The translations under genes and the position numbers were made by a program. From assembly GCF_048403405.1 (NCBI RefSeq), contig NZ_CP183129.1: a stretch of 64,000 bases of DNA; one strand, 5' to 3'. Below the pieces are notes generated by a model. It did no database searches, had not been told where the DNA came from, and saw only the letters and a program-made list of their open reading frames with translations. Origin of the DNA: Escherichia coli (GTDB lineage: Bacteria; Pseudomonadota; Gammaproteobacteria; Enterobacterales; Enterobacteriaceae). Within the stretch, counting starts at the first letter, position 1. Each line of letters begins with the position of its first letter. Shown here one piece after another: positions 35,574 through 59,789 of this stretch.

Positions 35574-37559
35574 ATGAAAACCGTTAGGGAGTCCACAACG
35601 TTGTACAACTTTCTCGGATCGCACAATCCATACTGGCGGTTAACGGAAAGCAGCGATGTTTTGCGCTTTTCTACCACCGAAACCACAGAACCTGAACGTA
35701 CGTTGCAGTTATCTGCCGAACAGGCTGCTCGCATCAGGGAAATGACAGTCATCACTTCCAGTCTGATGATGAGTCTGACCGTCGATGAAAGCGATCTTTC
35801 TGTGCATCTGGTAGGACGAAAAATCAATAAACGGGAATGGGCTGGCAACGCGTCGGCATGGCATGACACACCGGCGGTTGCTCGTGATTTATCACACGGG
35901 CTTTCCTTTGCTGAGCAGGTAGTTTCTGAAGCACATTCCGCAATAGTGATTCTCGACAGTCGGGGGAATATCCAGCGCTTCAATCGGTTATGTGAAGATT
36001 ACACAGGGTTGAAAGAACACGACGTCATTGGGCAAAGCGTGTTTAAACTGTTTATGAGCCGTCGTGAAGCTGCGGCATCCAGGCGCAATAACCGTGTATT
36101 TTTTCGAAGCGGCAATGCATATGAAGTCGAACTGTGGATACCAACACGTAAAGGCCAGCGGCTGTTTCTGTTTCGCAATAAATTTGTCCACAGCGGTAGT
36201 GGCAAAAACGAGATTTTTTTAATCTGTTCCGGCACCGACATTACCGAAGAGCGCCGCGCTCAGGAGCGACTGCGCATTCTGGCAAATACCGACAGTATCA
36301 CCGGACTGCCGAATCGTAACGCAATGCAGGAGTTAATCGATCACGCTATTAATCAGGCAGATAACAATAAAGTTGGGGTTGTGTATCTTGATTTGGATAA
36401 TTTTAAAAAGGTCAACGACGCCTATGGGCATTTGTTTGGTGACCAGCTATTACGCGACGTGTCATTGGCTATTTTAAGCTGTCTCGAACATGACCAGGTG
36501 TTGGCGCGTCCAGGTGGCGATGAGTTTCTGGTACTGGCATCCAACACCTCACAAAGCGCGCTGGAAGCAATGGCATCACGAATTTTGACCCGCTTACGGC
36601 TCCCCTTTCGCATTGGTTTAATTGAAGTTTATACCAGCTGTTCAGTAGGTATTGCACTCTCTCCCGAACATGGTTCAGACAGCACGGCTATTATTCGTCA
36701 CGCCGACACAGCAATGTACACAGCGAAGGAAGGCGGACGAGGACAATTTTGCGTTTTTACCCCAGAAATGAATCAACGGGTATTTGAATATCTCTGGCTG
36801 GATACCAACTTGCGTAAAGCACTGGAAAACGATCAGTTGGTTATTCACTATCAACCGAAAATCACCTGGCGTGGCGAAGTGCGCAGTCTGGAAGCACTAG
36901 TACGTTGGCAGTCACCTGAACGTGGGTTGATTCCACCGTTGGACTTCATTTCCTACGCCGAAGAGTCAGGGCTAATTGTGCCTTTAGGCCGTTGGGTGAT
37001 TCTCGATGTCGTACGCCAGGTGGCGAAGTGGCGGGATAAAGGTATTAACCTGCGAGTGGCGGTAAATATTTCTGCACGTCAGCTCGCCGATCAAACCATT
37101 TTCACCGCCCTGAAACAGGTTCTCCAGGAACTCAATTTTGAATACTGCCCTATAGATGTTGAACTGACAGAGAGTTGTCTGATTGAGAATGATGAACTGG
37201 CACTGTCTGTTATTCAACAATTTAGCCAACTAGGTGCGCAAGTGCATCTGGATGATTTTGGTACCGGCTACTCTTCACTTTCGCAACTGGCGCGCTTTCC
37301 GATCGATGCCATCAAACTTGACCAGGTTTTTGTTCGAGATATTCACAAACAACCTGTCTCGCAGTCACTGGTCCGGGCGATCGTCGCTGTGGCCCAGGCA
37401 TTGAATCTTCAGGTGATCGCCGAAGGTGTAGAGAGTGCAAAGGAAGATGCTTTTTTAACCAAGAACGGGATCAATGAGCGGCAAGGATTTTTGTTTGCCA
37501 AACCGATGCCCGCCGTCGCCTTCGAACGCTGGTATAAACGCTATCTGAAGCGCGCATAA
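35574..37559 (+). CDS. pdeR: Cyclic-di-GMP phosphodiesterase PdeR (PAS-GGDEF-EAL)
   Basis: 661-aa ORF with PAS, degenerate GGDEF and intact EAL domain; synteny. Confidence 0.9.
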   Translation: MKTVRESTTLYNFLGSHNPYWRLTESSDVLRFSTTETTEPERTLQLSAEQAARIREMTVITSSLMMSLTVDESDLSVHLVGRKINKREWAGNASAWHDTPAVARDLSHGLSFAEQVVSEAHSAIVILDSRGNIQRFNRLCEDYTGLKEHDVIGQSVFKLFMSRREAAASRRNNRVFFRSGNAYEVELWIPTRKGQRLFLFRNKFVHSGSGKNEIFLICSGTDITEERRAQERLRILANTDSITGLPNRNAMQELIDHAINQADNNKVGVVYLDLDNFKKVNDAYGHLFGDQLLRDVSLAILSCLEHDQVLARPGGDEFLVLASNTSQSALEAMASRILTRLRLPFRIGLIEVYTSCSVGIALSPEHGSDSTAIIRHADTAMYTAKEGGRGQFCVFTPEMNQRVFEYLWLDTNLRKALENDQLVIHYQPKITWRGEVRSLEALVRWQSPERGLIPPLDFISYAEESGLIVPLGRWVILDVVRQVAKWRDKGINLRVAVNISARQLADQTIFTALKQVLQELNFEYCPIDVELTESCLIENDELALSVIQQFSQLGAQVHLDDFGTGYSSLSQLARFPIDAIKLDQVFVRDIHKQPVSQSLVRAIVAVAQALNLQVIAEGVESAKEDAFLTKNGINERQGFLFAKPMPAVAFERWYKRYLKRA

Positions 37560-37705
37560 GTAGATGAATATATATACTTAGCGCTATATCCCGTCATTAT
37601 ATATCGTATTCCTGGATGATAATTAGCCGTTGCTGTTAAACACTTCTCTTTTAGCGGCAATTTTTGCATTATTCATTTTCCACTTTTACTATAAGGATGT
37701 CCTTG

Positions 37706-37879
37706 ATGTCTGAATTTGATGCCCAGCGCGTTGCCGAACGTATTGATATTGTGTTAGATATCCTTGTGGCAGGCGATTACCACTCTGCGATCCATAATCT
37801 CGAGATACTTAAAGCAGAACTCTTGCGCCAGGTTGCTGAATCTACGCCAGACATCCCGAAGGCACCGTGGGAGATTTAA
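37706..37879 (+). CDS. yciZ: Small protein YciZ (UPF0509)
   Basis: ORF track 37664..37879; start refined to ATG 37706 (57 aa [14 protein letters not shown]...). Confidence 0.7.
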
Positions 37880-46483: not shown

Positions 46484-46855
46484 AGCTCCTCCTTAATGAC
46501 AGGGTTGCGAAGCCCTGATTCTCTTCAGGGTGAATATTAAAGATAACACAAACATCGCGTAACGATTTGATAACAACCCAAATTGATAAAAGAGGAGAAA
46601 GCTTGTGGCAAAACAAATGAAAACCCCGCCGCAGCGGGGTCAGGGATCAGTGAGTAATGATCCAGAGGAGTTCGGCCCAGAAGAGCATCGACAGAGAAAA
46701 TGCGCCCATCCAGGACCAATATTTCATATTTGTGTTGATCATAGGCTACACCTTTAACGGTTATTACTTTGTGTTGAGATAACTCAACCTGTTATTGCTG
46801 CGGTGTATTAAAAGCCCTGTAATTCATTAAAAATGGGTAATAAGAATGATGATAA

Positions 46856-47023
46856 TTATTGTTTCGGCTGATCATCTTCAGCAAACAGTTCTATAAAGGC
46901 TTGCTGCTGCGATGTTAGTTGCCAGTCGTCTGGAATAACGACGGAACATTCCCGTTTCGTTTCTGTTTCATTGTCACTATGCTGGCATAATGGTGACGAC
47001 TCCAGTTGCTCCTGACCGACCAT
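46856..47023 (-). CDS. yciX: Small protein YciX
   Basis: ORF track 46856..47044; start probably the internal ATG at 47021-47023 (55 aa MVGQEQLESS...). Confidence 0.55.
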   Translation of the reverse strand: MVGQEQLESSPLCQHSDNETETKRECSVVIPDDWQLTSQQQAFIELFAEDDQPKQ

Positions 47024-47025
47024 AG

Positions 47026-47154
47026 TTATCCCCACACTTTCCAAATCAGCAGTGCGACAACCACCCAGAAAAGTGCAGAACCAAGAAAAACCGCCAGCCA
47101 GGCTTTACGTTTTAATTCAGGATCGCGGCGGGGTTCCTGATTTCCAGAAGGCAT
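47026..47154 (-). CDS. ymiA: Small membrane protein YmiA
   Basis: 42-aa ORF MPSGNQEPRRDPELKRKAWLAVFLGSALFWVVVALLIWKVWG read from the minus strand, below the ORF-track length cutoff; immediately upstream of yciX. Confidence 0.55.
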   Translation of the reverse strand: MPSGNQEPRRDPELKRKAWLAVFLGSALFWVVVALLIWKVWG

Positions 47155-47484
47155 TGCTAACCTCATATAATCGCCATCACTTATCAGCAAGACGTTGAAC
47201 GATTGGTGTAATTAATCATACGATGAGACAAATCCTAAAGAAACTTTAGTCAAAAATCCAGCGAATTTACGAATCGTCTCCAGTGAATAATTCAATCTTT
47301 TGACCTGAAATAGATATTTGAAAACTCGAGTTTGCGAGGCGGGTAATTAGACACTACTTTACAGGTAATTTACCCTATAAATATGAGGGATAAAAATATT
47401 GTGCACGGTATACAAATAAGCAACAAAAGAGAATATATTCCGGCACCTTCGCTACATAAAAGGTGCCGAAAATAACGCAAGAAA

Positions 47485-51936: not shown

Positions 51937-52640
51937 CCTATAAGGCTCTCTTACCAGCCGCGCCCTAACAGGCGCACACGATCTGACATTTGCATCCAAC
52001 TTCGTTACTTACGGCCCGTAAACGGGCTGCCCGGATAGGGAATCGATAACTGCTCTCCCATTTTATCCTCTTCAAGCTGGTGCTTTATGTAATCCTGTAT
52101 CTTCGCCGTGTTCTTACCCACCGTATCGACGTAGTACCCTCTGCACCAGAACTCCCTGTTCCTGTATTTGAATTTCAAATCACCAAACTGCTCGTAAAGC
52201 ATCAGACTGCTTTTCCCTTTCAGATATCCCATAAAGCCGGATACGCTCATTTTGGGCGGGATCTCCACAAGCATATGGATATGATCTGCACAGCATTCAG
52301 CTTCCAGAATCCGTACACTTTTCCACTCACACAGCTTTCTCAAAATACTGCCTATTGCTCTACGCTTCTCTCTGTAGAACACCTGTCTTCGGTATTTTGG
52401 CGCAAAAACTATGTGATATTTACAGTTCCATCGGGTGTGCGCTAAGCTCTTTTCGTTCCCCATTGGGACCCCCTTTTGATTTCTTGTTTGACACTTGCAG
52501 TTGCCAGACCGCAAGGTGTTTTAACAAATCAAAAGGGGTTTTAATAACTGGCTTAAAGCTGAAAGCTTTCCGGAACCCCCAGCCTAGCTGGGGGTTTTCT
52601 GTGCACAAACAAAACGCGAGGTCTTAGCCTCGCGTTTGTC
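51937..52640 (-). mobile_element. IS200-like insertion sequence (IS200/IS605 family), approximate boundaries
   Basis: Contains a Y1 transposase gene plus the characteristic stem-loops (52576-52596 and 52611-52636); not present between yciN and sohB in K-12. Ends estimated from the expected ~0.7 kb size. Confidence 0.7.
52005..52463 (-). CDS. tnpA: IS200 transposase TnpA (HUH Y1 transposase)
   Basis: ORF track 52005..52514; start refined to ATG 52461-52463 (152 aa MGNEKSLAHTRWNCKYHIVFAPKYRR...), HxH motif (HIHMLVEIPP). Confidence 0.85.
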   Translation of the reverse strand: MGNEKSLAHTRWNCKYHIVFAPKYRRQVFYREKRRAIGSILRKLCEWKSVRILEAECCADHIHMLVEIPPKMSVSGFMGYLKGKSSLMLYEQFGDLKFKYRNREFWCRGYYVDTVGKNTAKIQDYIKHQLEEDKMGEQLSIPYPGSPFTGRK

Positions 52641-55308: not shown

Positions 55309-55617
55309 TCAAGCGGCAATAGCGAAATTCAGAATACGTGTAATCTCATTCAAATGTCCCGGATATGCTTCATGATTCTCAGCGTCAACATCTTCAATAA
55401 ATAATATCAGTTCAGTAATTAACGCATTAGCATCGTCATAATTTATCCCGGCTAACTCTGGCGAAGTTTCAGTACCATAGTTAATCGTCAGGTTGTTCAT
55501 AACTGTGAGGATATGGATAAAATATTTATGACAAACATTACATGTGGTTTTATTACCCAAAGTATTATACAGCATATCAAGTAATGCCAATATTCTACGG
55601 TTTTGCACATCGTTCAT
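55309..55617 (-). CDS. Hypothetical small acidic cytoplasmic protein (102 aa), function unknown
   Basis: ORF with ATG start 6 nt after an AGGAGG Shine-Dalgarno that overlaps the stop of the upstream lipoprotein gene; AT-rich; no family recognised. Confidence 0.6.
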   Translation of the reverse strand: MNDVQNRRILALLDMLYNTLGNKTTCNVCHKYFIHILTVMNNLTINYGTETSPELAGINYDDANALITELILFIEDVDAENHEAYPGHLNEITRILNFAIAA

Positions 55618-55627
55618 AAAAAGCCTC

Positions 55628-56629
55628 CTATAACATTATTCCGCTGGCAATAAGTAATTTTGCCAGCCCCTCAGACGCCTTTAACCCACTAATGACCTGT
55701 GCGCGTAATATTTCATTTAATCTTTTTTGTTCAGCTGCCGTGCGTGTTTTATTAACGTATAAGCTTTTTAGATAATCACCCTTATCTATAAAGGCATTTA
55801 AAGCCTCAATCGCAGGCATGGCAGGTGCCGATGCCTGTAGTCTGGTTTCATTCACATTGATTACTGAACTTAGAAACTCCTTCCTGTTTTTCAGAGTGTT
55901 AAACTCTGTATTCTTAGAGTTTTTAGATGCTGTATTATAATAAAACATATTATCATGCACATTCGCAAAGGTATAATTTTCAATCTTATTGCTTTTTGTA
56001 TAAATATCATTGCGCAAAACCGCCATGTTCTTTATAAGTCTTACCCAGTTTTCATCTGCCGTTTTGCCTATTTTTCCAGAATTGACTTTAATTATATATA
56101 ACTCATTGAAATAATTTACCAAATCTTTAACCGCTGCTGCAGATTGAGCTAAATCTTTGCTATGTGAAACACCAAGTAGTGTTTGTGCGTTGTTTGCGTG
56201 ATCCAGAGCCTGTTTAAGTAATGCCACTTGCTGACTTTCCGTAGTTGCCATATCCTTTGTCAGAAGTTCCACATAAGCGCTCATGCTATTAATGACTTCC
56301 ATTGAAGCCAGTAATTTTTCTTTCTCGAAAGGGACTAATTGTACTTGTTTTGTATTTGGCCCTGAACGCTGGCATAATTTTCCGCCATTCCCATCACCGC
56401 CTATATCAATGGTATAATCAGGTCGCAATGCACAATCCGGATTAGTCGCGTAGAAATTAACAAGGAAGTTTTCACGAGAAGCATAGTATTGTTTAAAGAA
56501 ACTTGCATTCGCCGCTACTGCTTTGTTACCCGCAGTAATAACAGTTTCAGCTTGTTCGTTTTTCAATGCTTCAGTTGCACAACCTGAAAGCATTAACAGC
56601 GATAGAAATATTCCACTATATCTAATCAT
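55628..56629 (-). CDS. Hypothetical lipoprotein (333 aa), function unknown
   Basis: ATG start with SD GAGGTG; signal peptide plus lipobox LMLSGC (Cys17); N/K-rich, AT-rich coding sequence; no family recognised. Confidence 0.65.
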   Translation of the reverse strand: MIRYSGIFLSLLMLSGCATEALKNEQAETVITAGNKAVAANASFFKQYYASRENFLVNFYATNPDCALRPDYTIDIGGDGNGGKLCQRSGPNTKQVQLVPFEKEKLLASMEVINSMSAYVELLTKDMATTESQQVALLKQALDHANNAQTLLGVSHSKDLAQSAAAVKDLVNYFNELYIIKVNSGKIGKTADENWVRLIKNMAVLRNDIYTKSNKIENYTFANVHDNMFYYNTASKNSKNTEFNTLKNRKEFLSSVINVNETRLQASAPAMPAIEALNAFIDKGDYLKSLYVNKTRTAAEQKRLNEILRAQVISGLKASEGLAKLLIASGIML

Positions 56630-56798
56630 AACCCACCTCTTGACGTTGAGTTTATCTCAGATAATTAAATAGTAATGTGGCTATTTCCGGGTATTATTCA
56701 TAAGCAAGTATGAAATTAAATTAAAATACTGCGACTATTTATCATGCTTCAAATGAAGAAAAGGCCCCGCAGGGCCTTTATTTTATACTTATCTTAAA

Positions 56799-57884: not shown

Positions 57885-59789
57885 TTACCAGCCACCGCCG
57901 CCTCCGCCACCTGCACCGCCACCAGCACCACCACCGGAATAGCTACGCCCCAACAAACTGGTATAGGCCCCGCAACTCAGGTGCGTCTGTAATGAGAATA
58001 AAACGCCACTACGGGCAATTTCCGGGGCGCGAACAGCCGCTGTGAGTGATGGGGTGATACGTGCTGCCCATTCTCTGCCAAGGTTTGCCGAGACCGCCCA
58101 ACCTAACAACGCGTAATCCAGTTTCCGTGTTTCCCCTTTCCGCCGCCGCCCACTGTGTGTTGCTGCCTCTTTACGCGCAAGATAGTTAACGATAGCTTCA
58201 CCGTGGACATAACGTTGCTGCCCAGTTTGGGTAAACTTTGGCAGAAAAATATACCCCAAGCCAGTGAGATAACCGGTCAGGACAACAGCGCTAAAATAAC
58301 CCGCTGGCATATACCAGTAAAAGAATACATCTCCGACATTGATATAGAGAGAATAAAAGGCCACGCCTGAACAAATCAGCGGTAAAAACAAAGTGATGAT
58401 TACACGATTAACGCAAGGCTTGTCATCATCGCGGGCAAACACAAGCTCAAGGGAACAAAATAAAAAAGGAAGAAGCCAGCAGATCATAATAAACATATCG
58501 CCCACCAGACTCATTCCTGCCCAGCCTACGGGACTCAGGTTACCGTAGAGAATGACCGCTAATATCGCCATTCCCCCCCATTGCAAAAACGCATCAGGTC
58601 GGTAAAACGAAGACTTTTTACGCGGCAGATAAAATTTCTGCATCCGTAAAAATGCCCTGCGTAAGACTCTGTTGCGTCTCCCCGTAAGAACGACCTTATC
58701 GCCTTTACGAAATAACGCTTCCAGTAATAACTGCTCTGCGGGCAGTAATACCGCATTATTTCTGGTCGCGCCTTCATTAACACGAATCAGGATTTGCTGG
58801 TTCTTATCATACTGATCTTCCAGATGAATTTTGCCTTTCACAATCAGATTTACGATATCGGCACAAAAACCTTTATCGTCGTAAACCAGCTTCGCATCGA
58901 GACGTAACATGCCGGGCGTGTAATCTGGCGGAATGACATCGGTTTCAATCACATCTACCGGCGTAAATTGCGGCCTGCGCTTCCAGAGATATAACCATCC
59001 ACAAACCAGGAATAGACACGGAAACCAAATTAACAACGATGACGTGGAGGGTAAAAGAAGATGGCTGAAAATATTCGTCGTTTGTGGAGCCGGGGCATTG
59101 CTAAGTAAAGCGTGAGGCCAGCGGTAGAGTACCGTGAAATCTTCACGATAAAACGGATCGCGGGATTCAATTCTTCCGTCCTCAAGGATGCGGCCATTTC
59201 GATATGTGTCGCCCTCTTCTCCAGTAAAGAGATCGATTTCGCTAAATGGATTACCCGCGATATCAGGGAACTTGAGTGAAAATCGGGTCTTATAGATTTC
59301 AAACGGCCAGTGGTTACCGGTCACGTTCCAGATTAACAGATCTGAATCTCCCTCACGCAGGAAAGCATTTTTAACCTGATAATGAATTTGATAATGATAG
59401 TCGCCTTGAGGCAAGAAACGTTGTTTATCGCCCACGACGATACTCATTAAACCGATATGCCAGTCAAGATGCCAGGGTTCAGGAACACCATCACGGGTGA
59501 CGCCAACAATATGATAGTTCAGCAGTGCAGCGTCCCCATCAGGCTGCATCCAGAGTCGTGGTAAATCACGATAAAATCCGTGCTTAATCTGCTGATTTCG
59601 CGCCTGAAAATGAATATTTTCTTTGATGTCGAGCCCCCCATCCGGTTGCAGAGTGGCTTCAACATCAAAGAGCGAGATCCCTTCTTCATAAAAAGGGATC
59701 TCCGTGTTTTTCGGATAACTCAACGAAGAGAAAAAAGCCCAACTATCAACAGCAAAATGCAGCGATATATCCCTGCCATAGTCTTCCAT
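57885..59789 (-). CDS. yciQ: DUF2207-family inner-membrane protein
   Basis: 634-aa ORF with multiple TM segments and a Gly/Ala-rich C-terminal tail; synteny. Confidence 0.85.
   Translation of the reverse strand: MEDYGRDISLHFAVDSWAFFSSLSYPKNTEIPFYEEGISLFDVEATLQPDGGLDIKENIHFQARNQQIKHGFYRDLPRLWMQPDGDAALLNYHIVGVTRDGVPEPWHLDWHIGLMSIVVGDKQRFLPQGDYHYQIHYQVKNAFLREGDSDLLIWNVTGNHWPFEIYKTRFSLKFPDIAGNPFSEIDLFTGEEGDTYRNGRILEDGRIESRDPFYREDFTVLYRWPHALLSNAPAPQTTNIFSHLLLPSTSSLLIWFPCLFLVCGWLYLWKRRPQFTPVDVIETDVIPPDYTPGMLRLDAKLVYDDKGFCADIVNLIVKGKIHLEDQYDKNQQILIRVNEGATRNNAVLLPAEQLLLEALFRKGDKVVLTGRRNRVLRRAFLRMQKFYLPRKKSSFYRPDAFLQWGGMAILAVILYGNLSPVGWAGMSLVGDMFIMICWLLPFLFCSLELVFARDDDKPCVNRVIITLFLPLICSGVAFYSLYINVGDVFFYWYMPAGYFSAVVLTGYLTGLGYIFLPKFTQTGQQRYVHGEAIVNYLARKEAATHSGRRRKGETRKLDYALLGWAVSANLGREWAARITPSLTAAVRAPEIARSGVLFSLQTHLSCGAYTSLLGRSYSGGGAGGGAGGGGGGGW

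Follow-up and report, generated by a model that had tools for sequence, protein, structure and literature searches.

Several small proteins induced by the PhoQP system are among the closest described counterparts of YmiA. MgrB, MgtS, PmrR, and YoaI are single-pass proteins of at most 50 residues that are produced in low Mg2+ in a PhoQ-dependent manner and that slow growth when overexpressed, and YmiA resembles them in all of these respects. It differs from them in that its gene is always paired with a gene encoding a soluble acidic partner, YciX, and in that its deletion is without phenotype. By analogy with these PhoQP-induced proteins, YmiA most likely acts by modulating a larger membrane protein. 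As for gene arrangement, the mgtS–mgtT and yriA–yriB pairs each consist of two small ORFs within one operon, the stop and start codons of which nearly touch, as they do in ymiA–yciX. However, mgtS–mgtT and yriA–yriB are out-of-frame overlaps (PMC11429745), whereas ymiA and yciX are separated by a gap of 2 nt with no overlap. Moreover, unlike the members of those pairs, YciX is longer than 50 residues and soluble, and the coupling of ymiA to yciX is putative.

An earlier note, made from the letters of the window alone (the window being the whole 64,000-nt stretch of Escherichia coli DNA analyzed here, from contig NZ_CP183129.1), had reported ymiA and yciX as tandem small-protein genes. The reported pair is an already annotated and experimentally validated E. 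coli operon, ymiA–yciX(–ymiC), located between cysB and acnA. The finding is already known because RefSeq and the K-12 annotation carry the genes and published work detects YmiA, and its discovery value is small, both genes being annotated in every E. coli RefSeq genome. The residual value lies in the three YmiA N-termini (42, 46, and 53/54 aa) found in databases, for which the data below mark the part that is under protein-level selection. Overall, we are highly confident that these genes are the first two cistrons of the known enterobacterial ymiA–yciX–ymiC operon, translated and regulated along the lines proposed in the following sections.

Gene identity and coding status of ymiA

The comparison set consisted of 80 fetched loci from ~25 genera of Enterobacteriaceae which, together with the window, gave 81 loci. 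The features referred to throughout are as follows.

47026–47154, minus strand: ymiA, the 42-codon frame plus stop; conserved protein-coding core with its ATG in 81 of 81 loci and matches to NF000536 and PF22868
47026–47166, minus strand: ymiA as now annotated, 46 aa, MRLAMPSG…; the 141-nt CDS of RefSeq and K-12, with the TetRP start and the peptide LAMPSGNQEPR
47160–47164, minus strand: GAGGT Shine-Dalgarno sequence, 5 nt before the 42-aa ATG, overlapping the third base of the 46-aa start codon
46856–47023, minus strand: yciX, 55 aa plus stop; annotated, with an orthologue in 80 of 81 loci
47024–47033, minus strand: ymiA–yciX junction, comprising GGGGA (47033–47029), TAA (47028–47026), and the spacer CT (47025–47024), from the sequence
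46647–46742, minus strand: ymiC, 31 aa, third gene of the operon; annotated, with matches to NF041484 and PF23694
46613–46815, minus strand: Rfam STnc180 match (RF02079, full length), which holds ymiC and the terminator
47224–47237, minus strand: RcsB-type box, TAGGATTTGTCTCA, overlapping the likely −10 (TAGGAT) and transcription start site (~47224) of the ymiA operon
47155–47223, minus strand: putative 5′ leader of ~70 nt, near-invariant in nucleotides and unstructured

The 42-aa minus-strand frame claimed in the earlier note is present in the sequence at exactly the coordinates given. The frame begins with ATG at 47154–47152, comprises 42 sense codons (MPSGNQEPRRDPELKRKAWLAVFLGSALFWVVVALLIWKVWG), and is closed by TAA at 47028–47026. 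The yciX ATG (47023–47021) follows after two bases (C 47025 and T 47024), as the note had stated, and opens a 55-codon frame that runs to 46856. The reported interval, 47021–47154, is thus the span from the ymiA ATG to the yciX ATG. It was also correct that ymiA falls below a 60-aa ORF cutoff, the frame appearing in the program ORF list solely as a 54-aa TTG-initiated ORF (47026–47190).

A 1,161-nt (1.16-kb) interval from this locus has matches in 5,421 of 5,426 complete genomes, and seven records are 100% identical among the matches listed. In an identical E. coli record and in K-12 MG1655, the gene order is cysB – ymiA (141 nt) – yciX (168 nt) – ymiC (96 nt) – acnA, which agrees with the names, order, and location that the note had given. 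Its description of a small-protein pair holds insofar as ymiA and yciX are adjacent, but the operon to which they belong has three genes, ymiC being the last. The cysB – ymiA – yciX – (ymiC) – acnA arrangement was found in the window ORFs, in the E. coli annotation, and in L085, L087, and L088, the three distant loci with enough sequence, all of which are flanked by cysB and acnA. When compared with K-12 b4522, the 42 residues are identical to residues 5–46 of the K-12 protein and the gene has the same place between cysB and yciX, the only difference being the called N-terminus (42 aa in NF000536 and 46 aa in RefSeq, K-12, and PF22868).

The size of the ymiA ORF is by itself no evidence of coding, because the program ORF list has 45 ORFs of at least 20 aa overlapping a 2.2-kb stretch around ymiA. 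The frame is considered real because of its conservation pattern across the 81 loci. Within the 42 codons, the entropy by codon position is 0.43/0.27/1.15. The peptide scores 97.2 bits against the NCBIfam model NF000536 (YmiA family putative membrane protein; cutoff 30), with positions 1–42 of 42 matched, and 115.2 bits against the Pfam model PF22868 (YmiA-like; cutoff 27), with positions 5–46 of 46 matched. The methods that the earlier note had put forward for checking the frame, ribosome profiling and tagged-protein detection, have already given positive results in published work. Both TetRP (PMC4909307) and Onc112/retapamulin profiling (bioRxiv 10.1101/511675) detect ymiA initiation, and YmiA has been detected by tagging and by GFP fusion (the latter in PMC11429745). 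Targeted (PRM) mass spectrometry put its abundance at roughly 1000–3000 copies per cell (PMC12529367).

An alternative is that the 42 codons are a chance ORF in the intergenic or leader region of acnA that encodes no functional protein. The abundance of small ORFs around ymiA and the report that a ymiA deletion strain has no growth phenotype in low Mg2+ (PMC11429745) would be in keeping with this explanation. However, it is already refuted by the strong coding periodicity, which is accompanied by a fixed length in the 81 loci, by membership in the two HMM families, and by detection of the protein through tagging, mass spectrometry, and GFP fusion (PMC11429745; PMC12529367). Moreover, YmiA overexpression lengthens the lag phase and this effect is lost upon mutation of the start codon (PMC11429745). 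We therefore give a chance ORF virtually no credence and treat ymiA as a protein-coding gene.

The best 19-aa hydrophobic window of YmiA, WLAVFLGSALFWVVVALLI, has a mean hydropathy of 2.54 and is flanked by five K plus R residues on its N-terminal side and one on its C-terminal side. The residues K19, R20, K21, A22, and W23 (KRKAW), which precede the transmembrane (TM) helix, are invariant in the protein alignment. The hydropathy and charge distribution of the peptide fit a single-pass membrane protein of N-in topology, and GFP–YmiA was found at the cell periphery/membrane (Vellappan et al., PMC11429745). In the arrangement we propose, YmiA would lie in the inner membrane with a cytoplasmic N-terminus, the KRK cluster, a hydrophobic helix of 19–21 residues, and only WKVWG beyond the helix. 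The sole PDB match was marginal (a 45-aa AmoD chain, E = 0.04) and was taken as similarity in TM-helix composition.

The translation start of ymiA

Three N-termini have been given for YmiA. The 42-aa form is that of a 2006 GenBank record and of Hemm 2008, a 54-aa form starting at TTG was given in a 2014 record, and the 46-aa form (MRLAMP…) is that of TetRP (PMC4909307), Weaver et al. (bioRxiv 10.1101/511675), and current RefSeq. Some older or other-species records call the gene at 53–54 aa. The 42-aa N-terminus proposed in the earlier note stands as a conserved frame in 81 of 81 loci, but as an annotation it is the superseded one of 2006, current records having 46 aa. A 42-aa call can be defended, although it departs from the annotation now in use.

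The 42-aa ATG is present in all 81 loci and each time opens a frame of exactly 42 codons. At the position of the 46-aa start, 57 of these loci have ATG and 5 have GTG, whereas 19 have a codon that is not a start (ACG, AAG, or GCG), the latter being those of Kosakonia, Phytobacter, Trabulsiella, Pseudocitrobacter, and some Leclercia. The codon encodes Glu in an E. fergusonii protein and is ATC in L088. The G+AGG of the Shine-Dalgarno sequence is invariant (81 of 81 loci) and the T that follows is kept in 78 (it is C in L007, L053, and L060). Note that the first two bases of the 46-aa start codon vary across the 81 loci whereas the third base, G, never does. This is the opposite of a coding constraint, and the fixed G fits as part of GAGGT. 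The calculated pairing with the anti-Shine-Dalgarno sequence at the 42-aa start is −6.3 kcal/mol in all loci, as against −2.5 kcal/mol on average for the starts of the two longer forms (46 and 53 aa) and −2.0 kcal/mol on average for the background.

Codon-position entropy gave a similarly sharp boundary. The values are flat (0.33/0.31/0.28) across the 33 nt preceding the 42-aa ATG, and coding-type variation starts exactly at that ATG. Since there is no codon periodicity in the 33 nt, these are conserved as nucleotides rather than as protein. The comparative data thereby explain why the stretch upstream of ymiA has a deceptively coding-like look.

Data from K-12 bear on the same question. The TetRP depths reported for the 46-aa site are 58.3/30.5/25.6 and those for the 42-aa site 0/31.9/36.6 (PMC4909307). 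A tryptic peptide from K-12 (LAMPSGNQEPR; Krug 2013, as cited in the supplement to the TetRP paper, PMC4909307) requires that translation start at or before the 46-aa ATG. Weaver et al. (bioRxiv 10.1101/511675) state that ymiA "likely initiates with MRLAMP". The main text of the TetRP paper (PMC4909307) reports "little signal" at the 2006 (42-aa) start, a remark that sits awkwardly with the values in its own table and with a reading in which two starts are used.

These K-12 results raise the possibility that ymiA encodes a 46-aa protein made only from the ATG at 47166, the 42-aa ATG being an internal Met codon and the Shine-Dalgarno sequence a coincidence of the Met-Arg-Leu codons. In favor of this, MRLAMP is the main K-12 start by two initiation-profiling methods, the tryptic peptide needs the longer form, and this start is the one used by RefSeq, by the EcoCyc-derived K-12 annotation, and by PF22868 with its 46 positions. 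Such exclusive use is rather unlikely in our view. The codon is a non-start in 19 of the 81 loci, Glu in the E. fergusonii protein, and ATC in L088, its first two bases vary while the G is fixed as expected of GAGGT, it has no Shine-Dalgarno sequence (−2.5 kcal/mol), and codon periodicity is absent upstream of the 42-aa ATG. In addition, in two of the three samples the TetRP signal at the 42-aa site is at least as deep as at the 46-aa site.

K-12 probably uses both starts. In the scheme we infer, translation of the 42-codon frame would be driven by the GAGGT located 5 nt upstream of its ATG and the K-12 ATG four codons upstream would also be used, to give the 46-aa form. We put about equal weight for and against the fuller reading, in which the 42-codon frame plus the invariant GAGGT is the universal unit, the 46-aa start is secondary and restricted to some lineages, adding four residues that are not conserved, and the ~60 nt upstream are a regulatory element rather than coding sequence. 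If the 42-aa start is indeed ancestral and the pseudo-coding leader regulatory, this would be a modest point on annotation and regulation.

The longer calls were considered as well. An upstream "MISD…" extension as conserved coding sequence was rejected on its lack of codon periodicity and of a Shine-Dalgarno sequence. The 53-aa ATG is absent in Escherichia, and in L070 it is out of frame, the stretch being frameshifted with stops. An in-frame pseudo-peptide, MISDxDC-x-RLA, lies upstream of ymiA and gives rise to 53–54-aa gene calls in many genomes.

The ymiA–yciX junction and YciX

An orthologue of YciX follows ymiA in 80 of the 81 loci, the exception being one S. enterica subsp. arizonae strain. 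In these 80 loci, the gap between the ymiA stop codon and the yciX start codon is −1 to +4 nt, most commonly 2 nt, and the stop codon and spacer bases diverge freely across loci. The two genes are thus on the same strand with stop and start codons within a few nucleotides of one another, the arrangement expected of a coupled pair, and a gap this short is the usual setting for termination–reinitiation. No promoter-like site was found between the genes on the minus strand in a consensus scan. The Trp-Gly codons (TGG GGN) of ymiA are near-invariant, and in the window TGG GGA supplies the Shine-Dalgarno-like GGGGA of yciX. Translational coupling of ymiA and yciX fits these comparative data.

Conserved RNA structure at the junction is essentially nil (RNAalifold −0.32 kcal/mol), and a structure that enforces coupling there was rejected on this value. 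With the yciX start free of any conserved occluding structure, there is no constraint that would make its translation dependent on that of ymiA. The tiny spacer could reflect compact packing of an operon in which the two genes are adjacent but independently translated, with yciX initiating de novo on its own Shine-Dalgarno sequence. The Shine-Dalgarno-like pairing of yciX averages −6.2 kcal/mol, and the unstructured junction leaves its start accessible without upstream translation. Distant relatives bear on this point also. A YmiA-like gene immediately precedes yciX in each of the four distant homologues that were examined (three by PF22868 and L084 by six-frame translation), and the gaps in these relatives reach 13–14 nt. 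In the two most distant loci the gap is 13 nt and an independent, canonical GAGG precedes yciX. In L088, the gap to the called yciX start is 14 nt and that start has no strong Shine-Dalgarno sequence (−2.8 kcal/mol). Independent initiation, although a serious alternative, is nevertheless somewhat doubtful, given that 80 loci from ~25 genera retain a spacing of −1 to +4 nt despite divergence of the stop codon, the spacer, and the YciX N-terminus.

We favor coupling by proximity rather than by unmasking of a hairpin, a mechanism that we infer from the 2-nt distance to the ymiA stop codon and the GGGGA within the last ymiA codons. Ribosomes ending at the ymiA stop would be 2 nt from the yciX ATG, with the Shine-Dalgarno-like GGGGA of TGG GGA close at hand, and yciX would most likely be translated by ribosomes that re-initiate or are recruited locally. 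The constant pairing of the genes suggests that YmiA and YciX may also be functional partners. As the two are always together, searches for function are best done by treating both as one unit.

The yciX gene is the same as K-12 b4523 (55 aa, starting 2 nt after the ymiA stop), with no difference, and its CDS is WP_001297116.1 in the E. coli record that matches the 1,161-nt query at 100%. YciX is a soluble, acidic protein of 55 aa (12 D plus E and 3 K plus R residues). Its N-terminal half diverges freely across loci and a C-terminal block, IP-x-SW-x-L-T-x-QQ-x-AFI-D-x-F, is conserved (codon-position entropy of 0.53/0.38/1.31 in the 80 orthologues). YciX matched no Pfam or NCBIfam model and had no relative in the PDB, and the hits of a search with its sequence alone were confined to Escherichia and Shigella. 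With a profile, 76 cluster representatives were recovered from 1.84 billion protein representatives, all of them small proteins. Since no large family was returned, a wider family for YciX was rejected. Within the searchable literature, no published evidence was found for the YciX protein itself.

In metagenomes and genomes, some gene calls of 91–100 aa (P0108, P0109, P0118, P0143, P0183, and P0194) fuse the N-terminus of YmiA to YciX. The TM-coding region of ymiA is at ~47050–47085. P0109, which has 37 member sequences, has lost 17 nt there between short GGT repeats; most of the TM helix is missing as a result, and translation passes into the yciX frame. The 91–100-aa calls are either natural ymiA-null alleles or assembly errors. 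Their use as "Rosetta stone" evidence was rejected, the 91–97-aa entries being deletion/frameshift alleles and not designed fusions.

Promoter, leader, and distal genes of the operon

Regulation at the level of the operon has been published. Vellappan et al. (PMC11429745) reported PhoQ-dependent induction of both ymiA and ymiC in low Mg2+. Reporter activity was found upstream of ymiA only, which was read as a "ymiA-yciX-ymiC" operon (PMC11429745). In the window, TAGGATTTGTCTCA (47237–47224) is the only exact match in 64 kb to TNRGANNNNTCYNA (RcsB-box consensus TN(G/A)GAN4TC(T/C)NA; Huesa et al. 2021, PMC7913699), and all specified positions of the match are invariant in 78 loci. In Salmonella, the identical 14-mer was reported upstream of ymiA, where it spans −13 to +1 relative to the mapped transcription start site (PMC7913699). 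Salmonella ymiA is down (log2FC −1.10 by RNA-seq) when RcsB is active (PMC7913699). Given the Salmonella start site and the identity of the 14-mer, the E. coli start site is likely near 47224, a position transferred by sequence identity, and this would give a leader of ~70 nt. In the proposed scheme, transcription would begin ~70 nt upstream of ymiA from a promoter overlapped by the RcsB-type operator. YjjQ, a FixJ/NarL-type repressor related to RcsB, is given as a ymiA regulator in a secondary table.

Other operators were sought near the promoter. For the PhoP box, (T/G)GTTTA-N5-(T/G)GTTTA, only matches with three mismatches were found there (47225–47241 and 47236–47252). As 187 such matches occur in the window versus 137 expected, those at the promoter are no better than background and no PhoP box was called. 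With no PhoP box identified above chance, the published PhoQ dependence may be indirect. A resemblance of ATGATAAGYGAT to a Fur box, seen by eye, extends to only ~12 of 19 positions and was set aside.

The ~200 nt of non-coding DNA upstream of ymiA (~47155–47350, minus strand) are more conserved across the ~25 genera than are the third codon positions of the genes, and they have neither codon periodicity nor a conserved RNA structure. No conserved RNA structure of note was found in the ymiA leader (RNAalifold −2.08 kcal/mol), and the fold of the E. coli sequence is no more stable than those of shuffled versions (z = +0.82). A Mg2+-sensing leader structure was rejected on these two values. The leader could be a nucleotide-level regulatory element controlling this PhoQP- and RcsB-responsive operon, either a site for an sRNA or a protein or an operator downstream of the transcription start site. 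Searches for ymiA function should take account of the RcsB/PhoQP-responsive promoter and of the ultra-conserved leader.

Low Mg2+ induces the operon via PhoQP, and the transcript would extend through ymiC to an intrinsic terminator upstream of acnA. The ymiC peptide matches NF041484 and PF23694, the codon-position entropy of the gene is 0.66/0.26/1.11, and its product is a small membrane protein that has been detected by SPA tag in published work. A motif search found ymiC in ~49 of the 81 loci, although the regular expression used could miss divergent copies. The gene is apparently missing in Kosakonia, Phytobacter, the Citrobacter freundii group, and Pseudescherichia, and the loci apparently without it include L021–L023, L030–L033, L039, L045–L052, L054, L079, and L082. 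The spacer between yciX and acnA is 353–480 nt in the apparently ymiC-less loci versus ~545–600 nt. From this distribution ymiC seems dispensable, whereas the ymiA–yciX pair does not.

The STnc180 model (RF02079) matches immediately downstream of yciX, outside the reported feature, with a score of 201.6 bits (threshold 50; E = 9e-44) over model positions 1–208 of 208. The match holds the ymiC ORF (46742–46647) and a terminator hairpin at 46641–46622 with its T-run, which was found by a terminator scan. Since STnc180 contains the whole of ymiC plus the terminator, the "sRNA" is the ymiC-coding 3′ part of the operon mRNA. Its discoverers saw species of 500–2000 nt that they judged to be processed mRNA (Sittka 2008), that is, a fragment of a message and not a stand-alone sRNA. 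Adams et al. list ymiC–acnA among uORFs with a nearby 3′ end. A second near-invariant non-coding block, …TATCAATTTGGGTTGTTATCAAATCGTTACGCG…TTATCTTTAATATT…, lies at 46535–46595 (minus strand), after the ymiC terminator and 50–110 nt upstream of the acnA ATG. This block is presumably the proximal promoter/operator region of acnA.

Annotation of other parts of the window was transferred from record NZ_CP128875.1, which is collinear with the window at 99.989%, so that the coordinates are accurate to ±1. This annotation has an IS200C-family tnpA between sohB and yciN (window ~52006–52464), two hypothetical-protein genes between rluB and cobO (~55310–56630), and a frameshifted yciQ pseudogene (~57886–59780). 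It also has the small-protein genes ymiD (42 aa) and yciZ, which adjoin pdeR (~37541–37879). Validated small ORFs below the 60-aa cutoff are numerous in the window.
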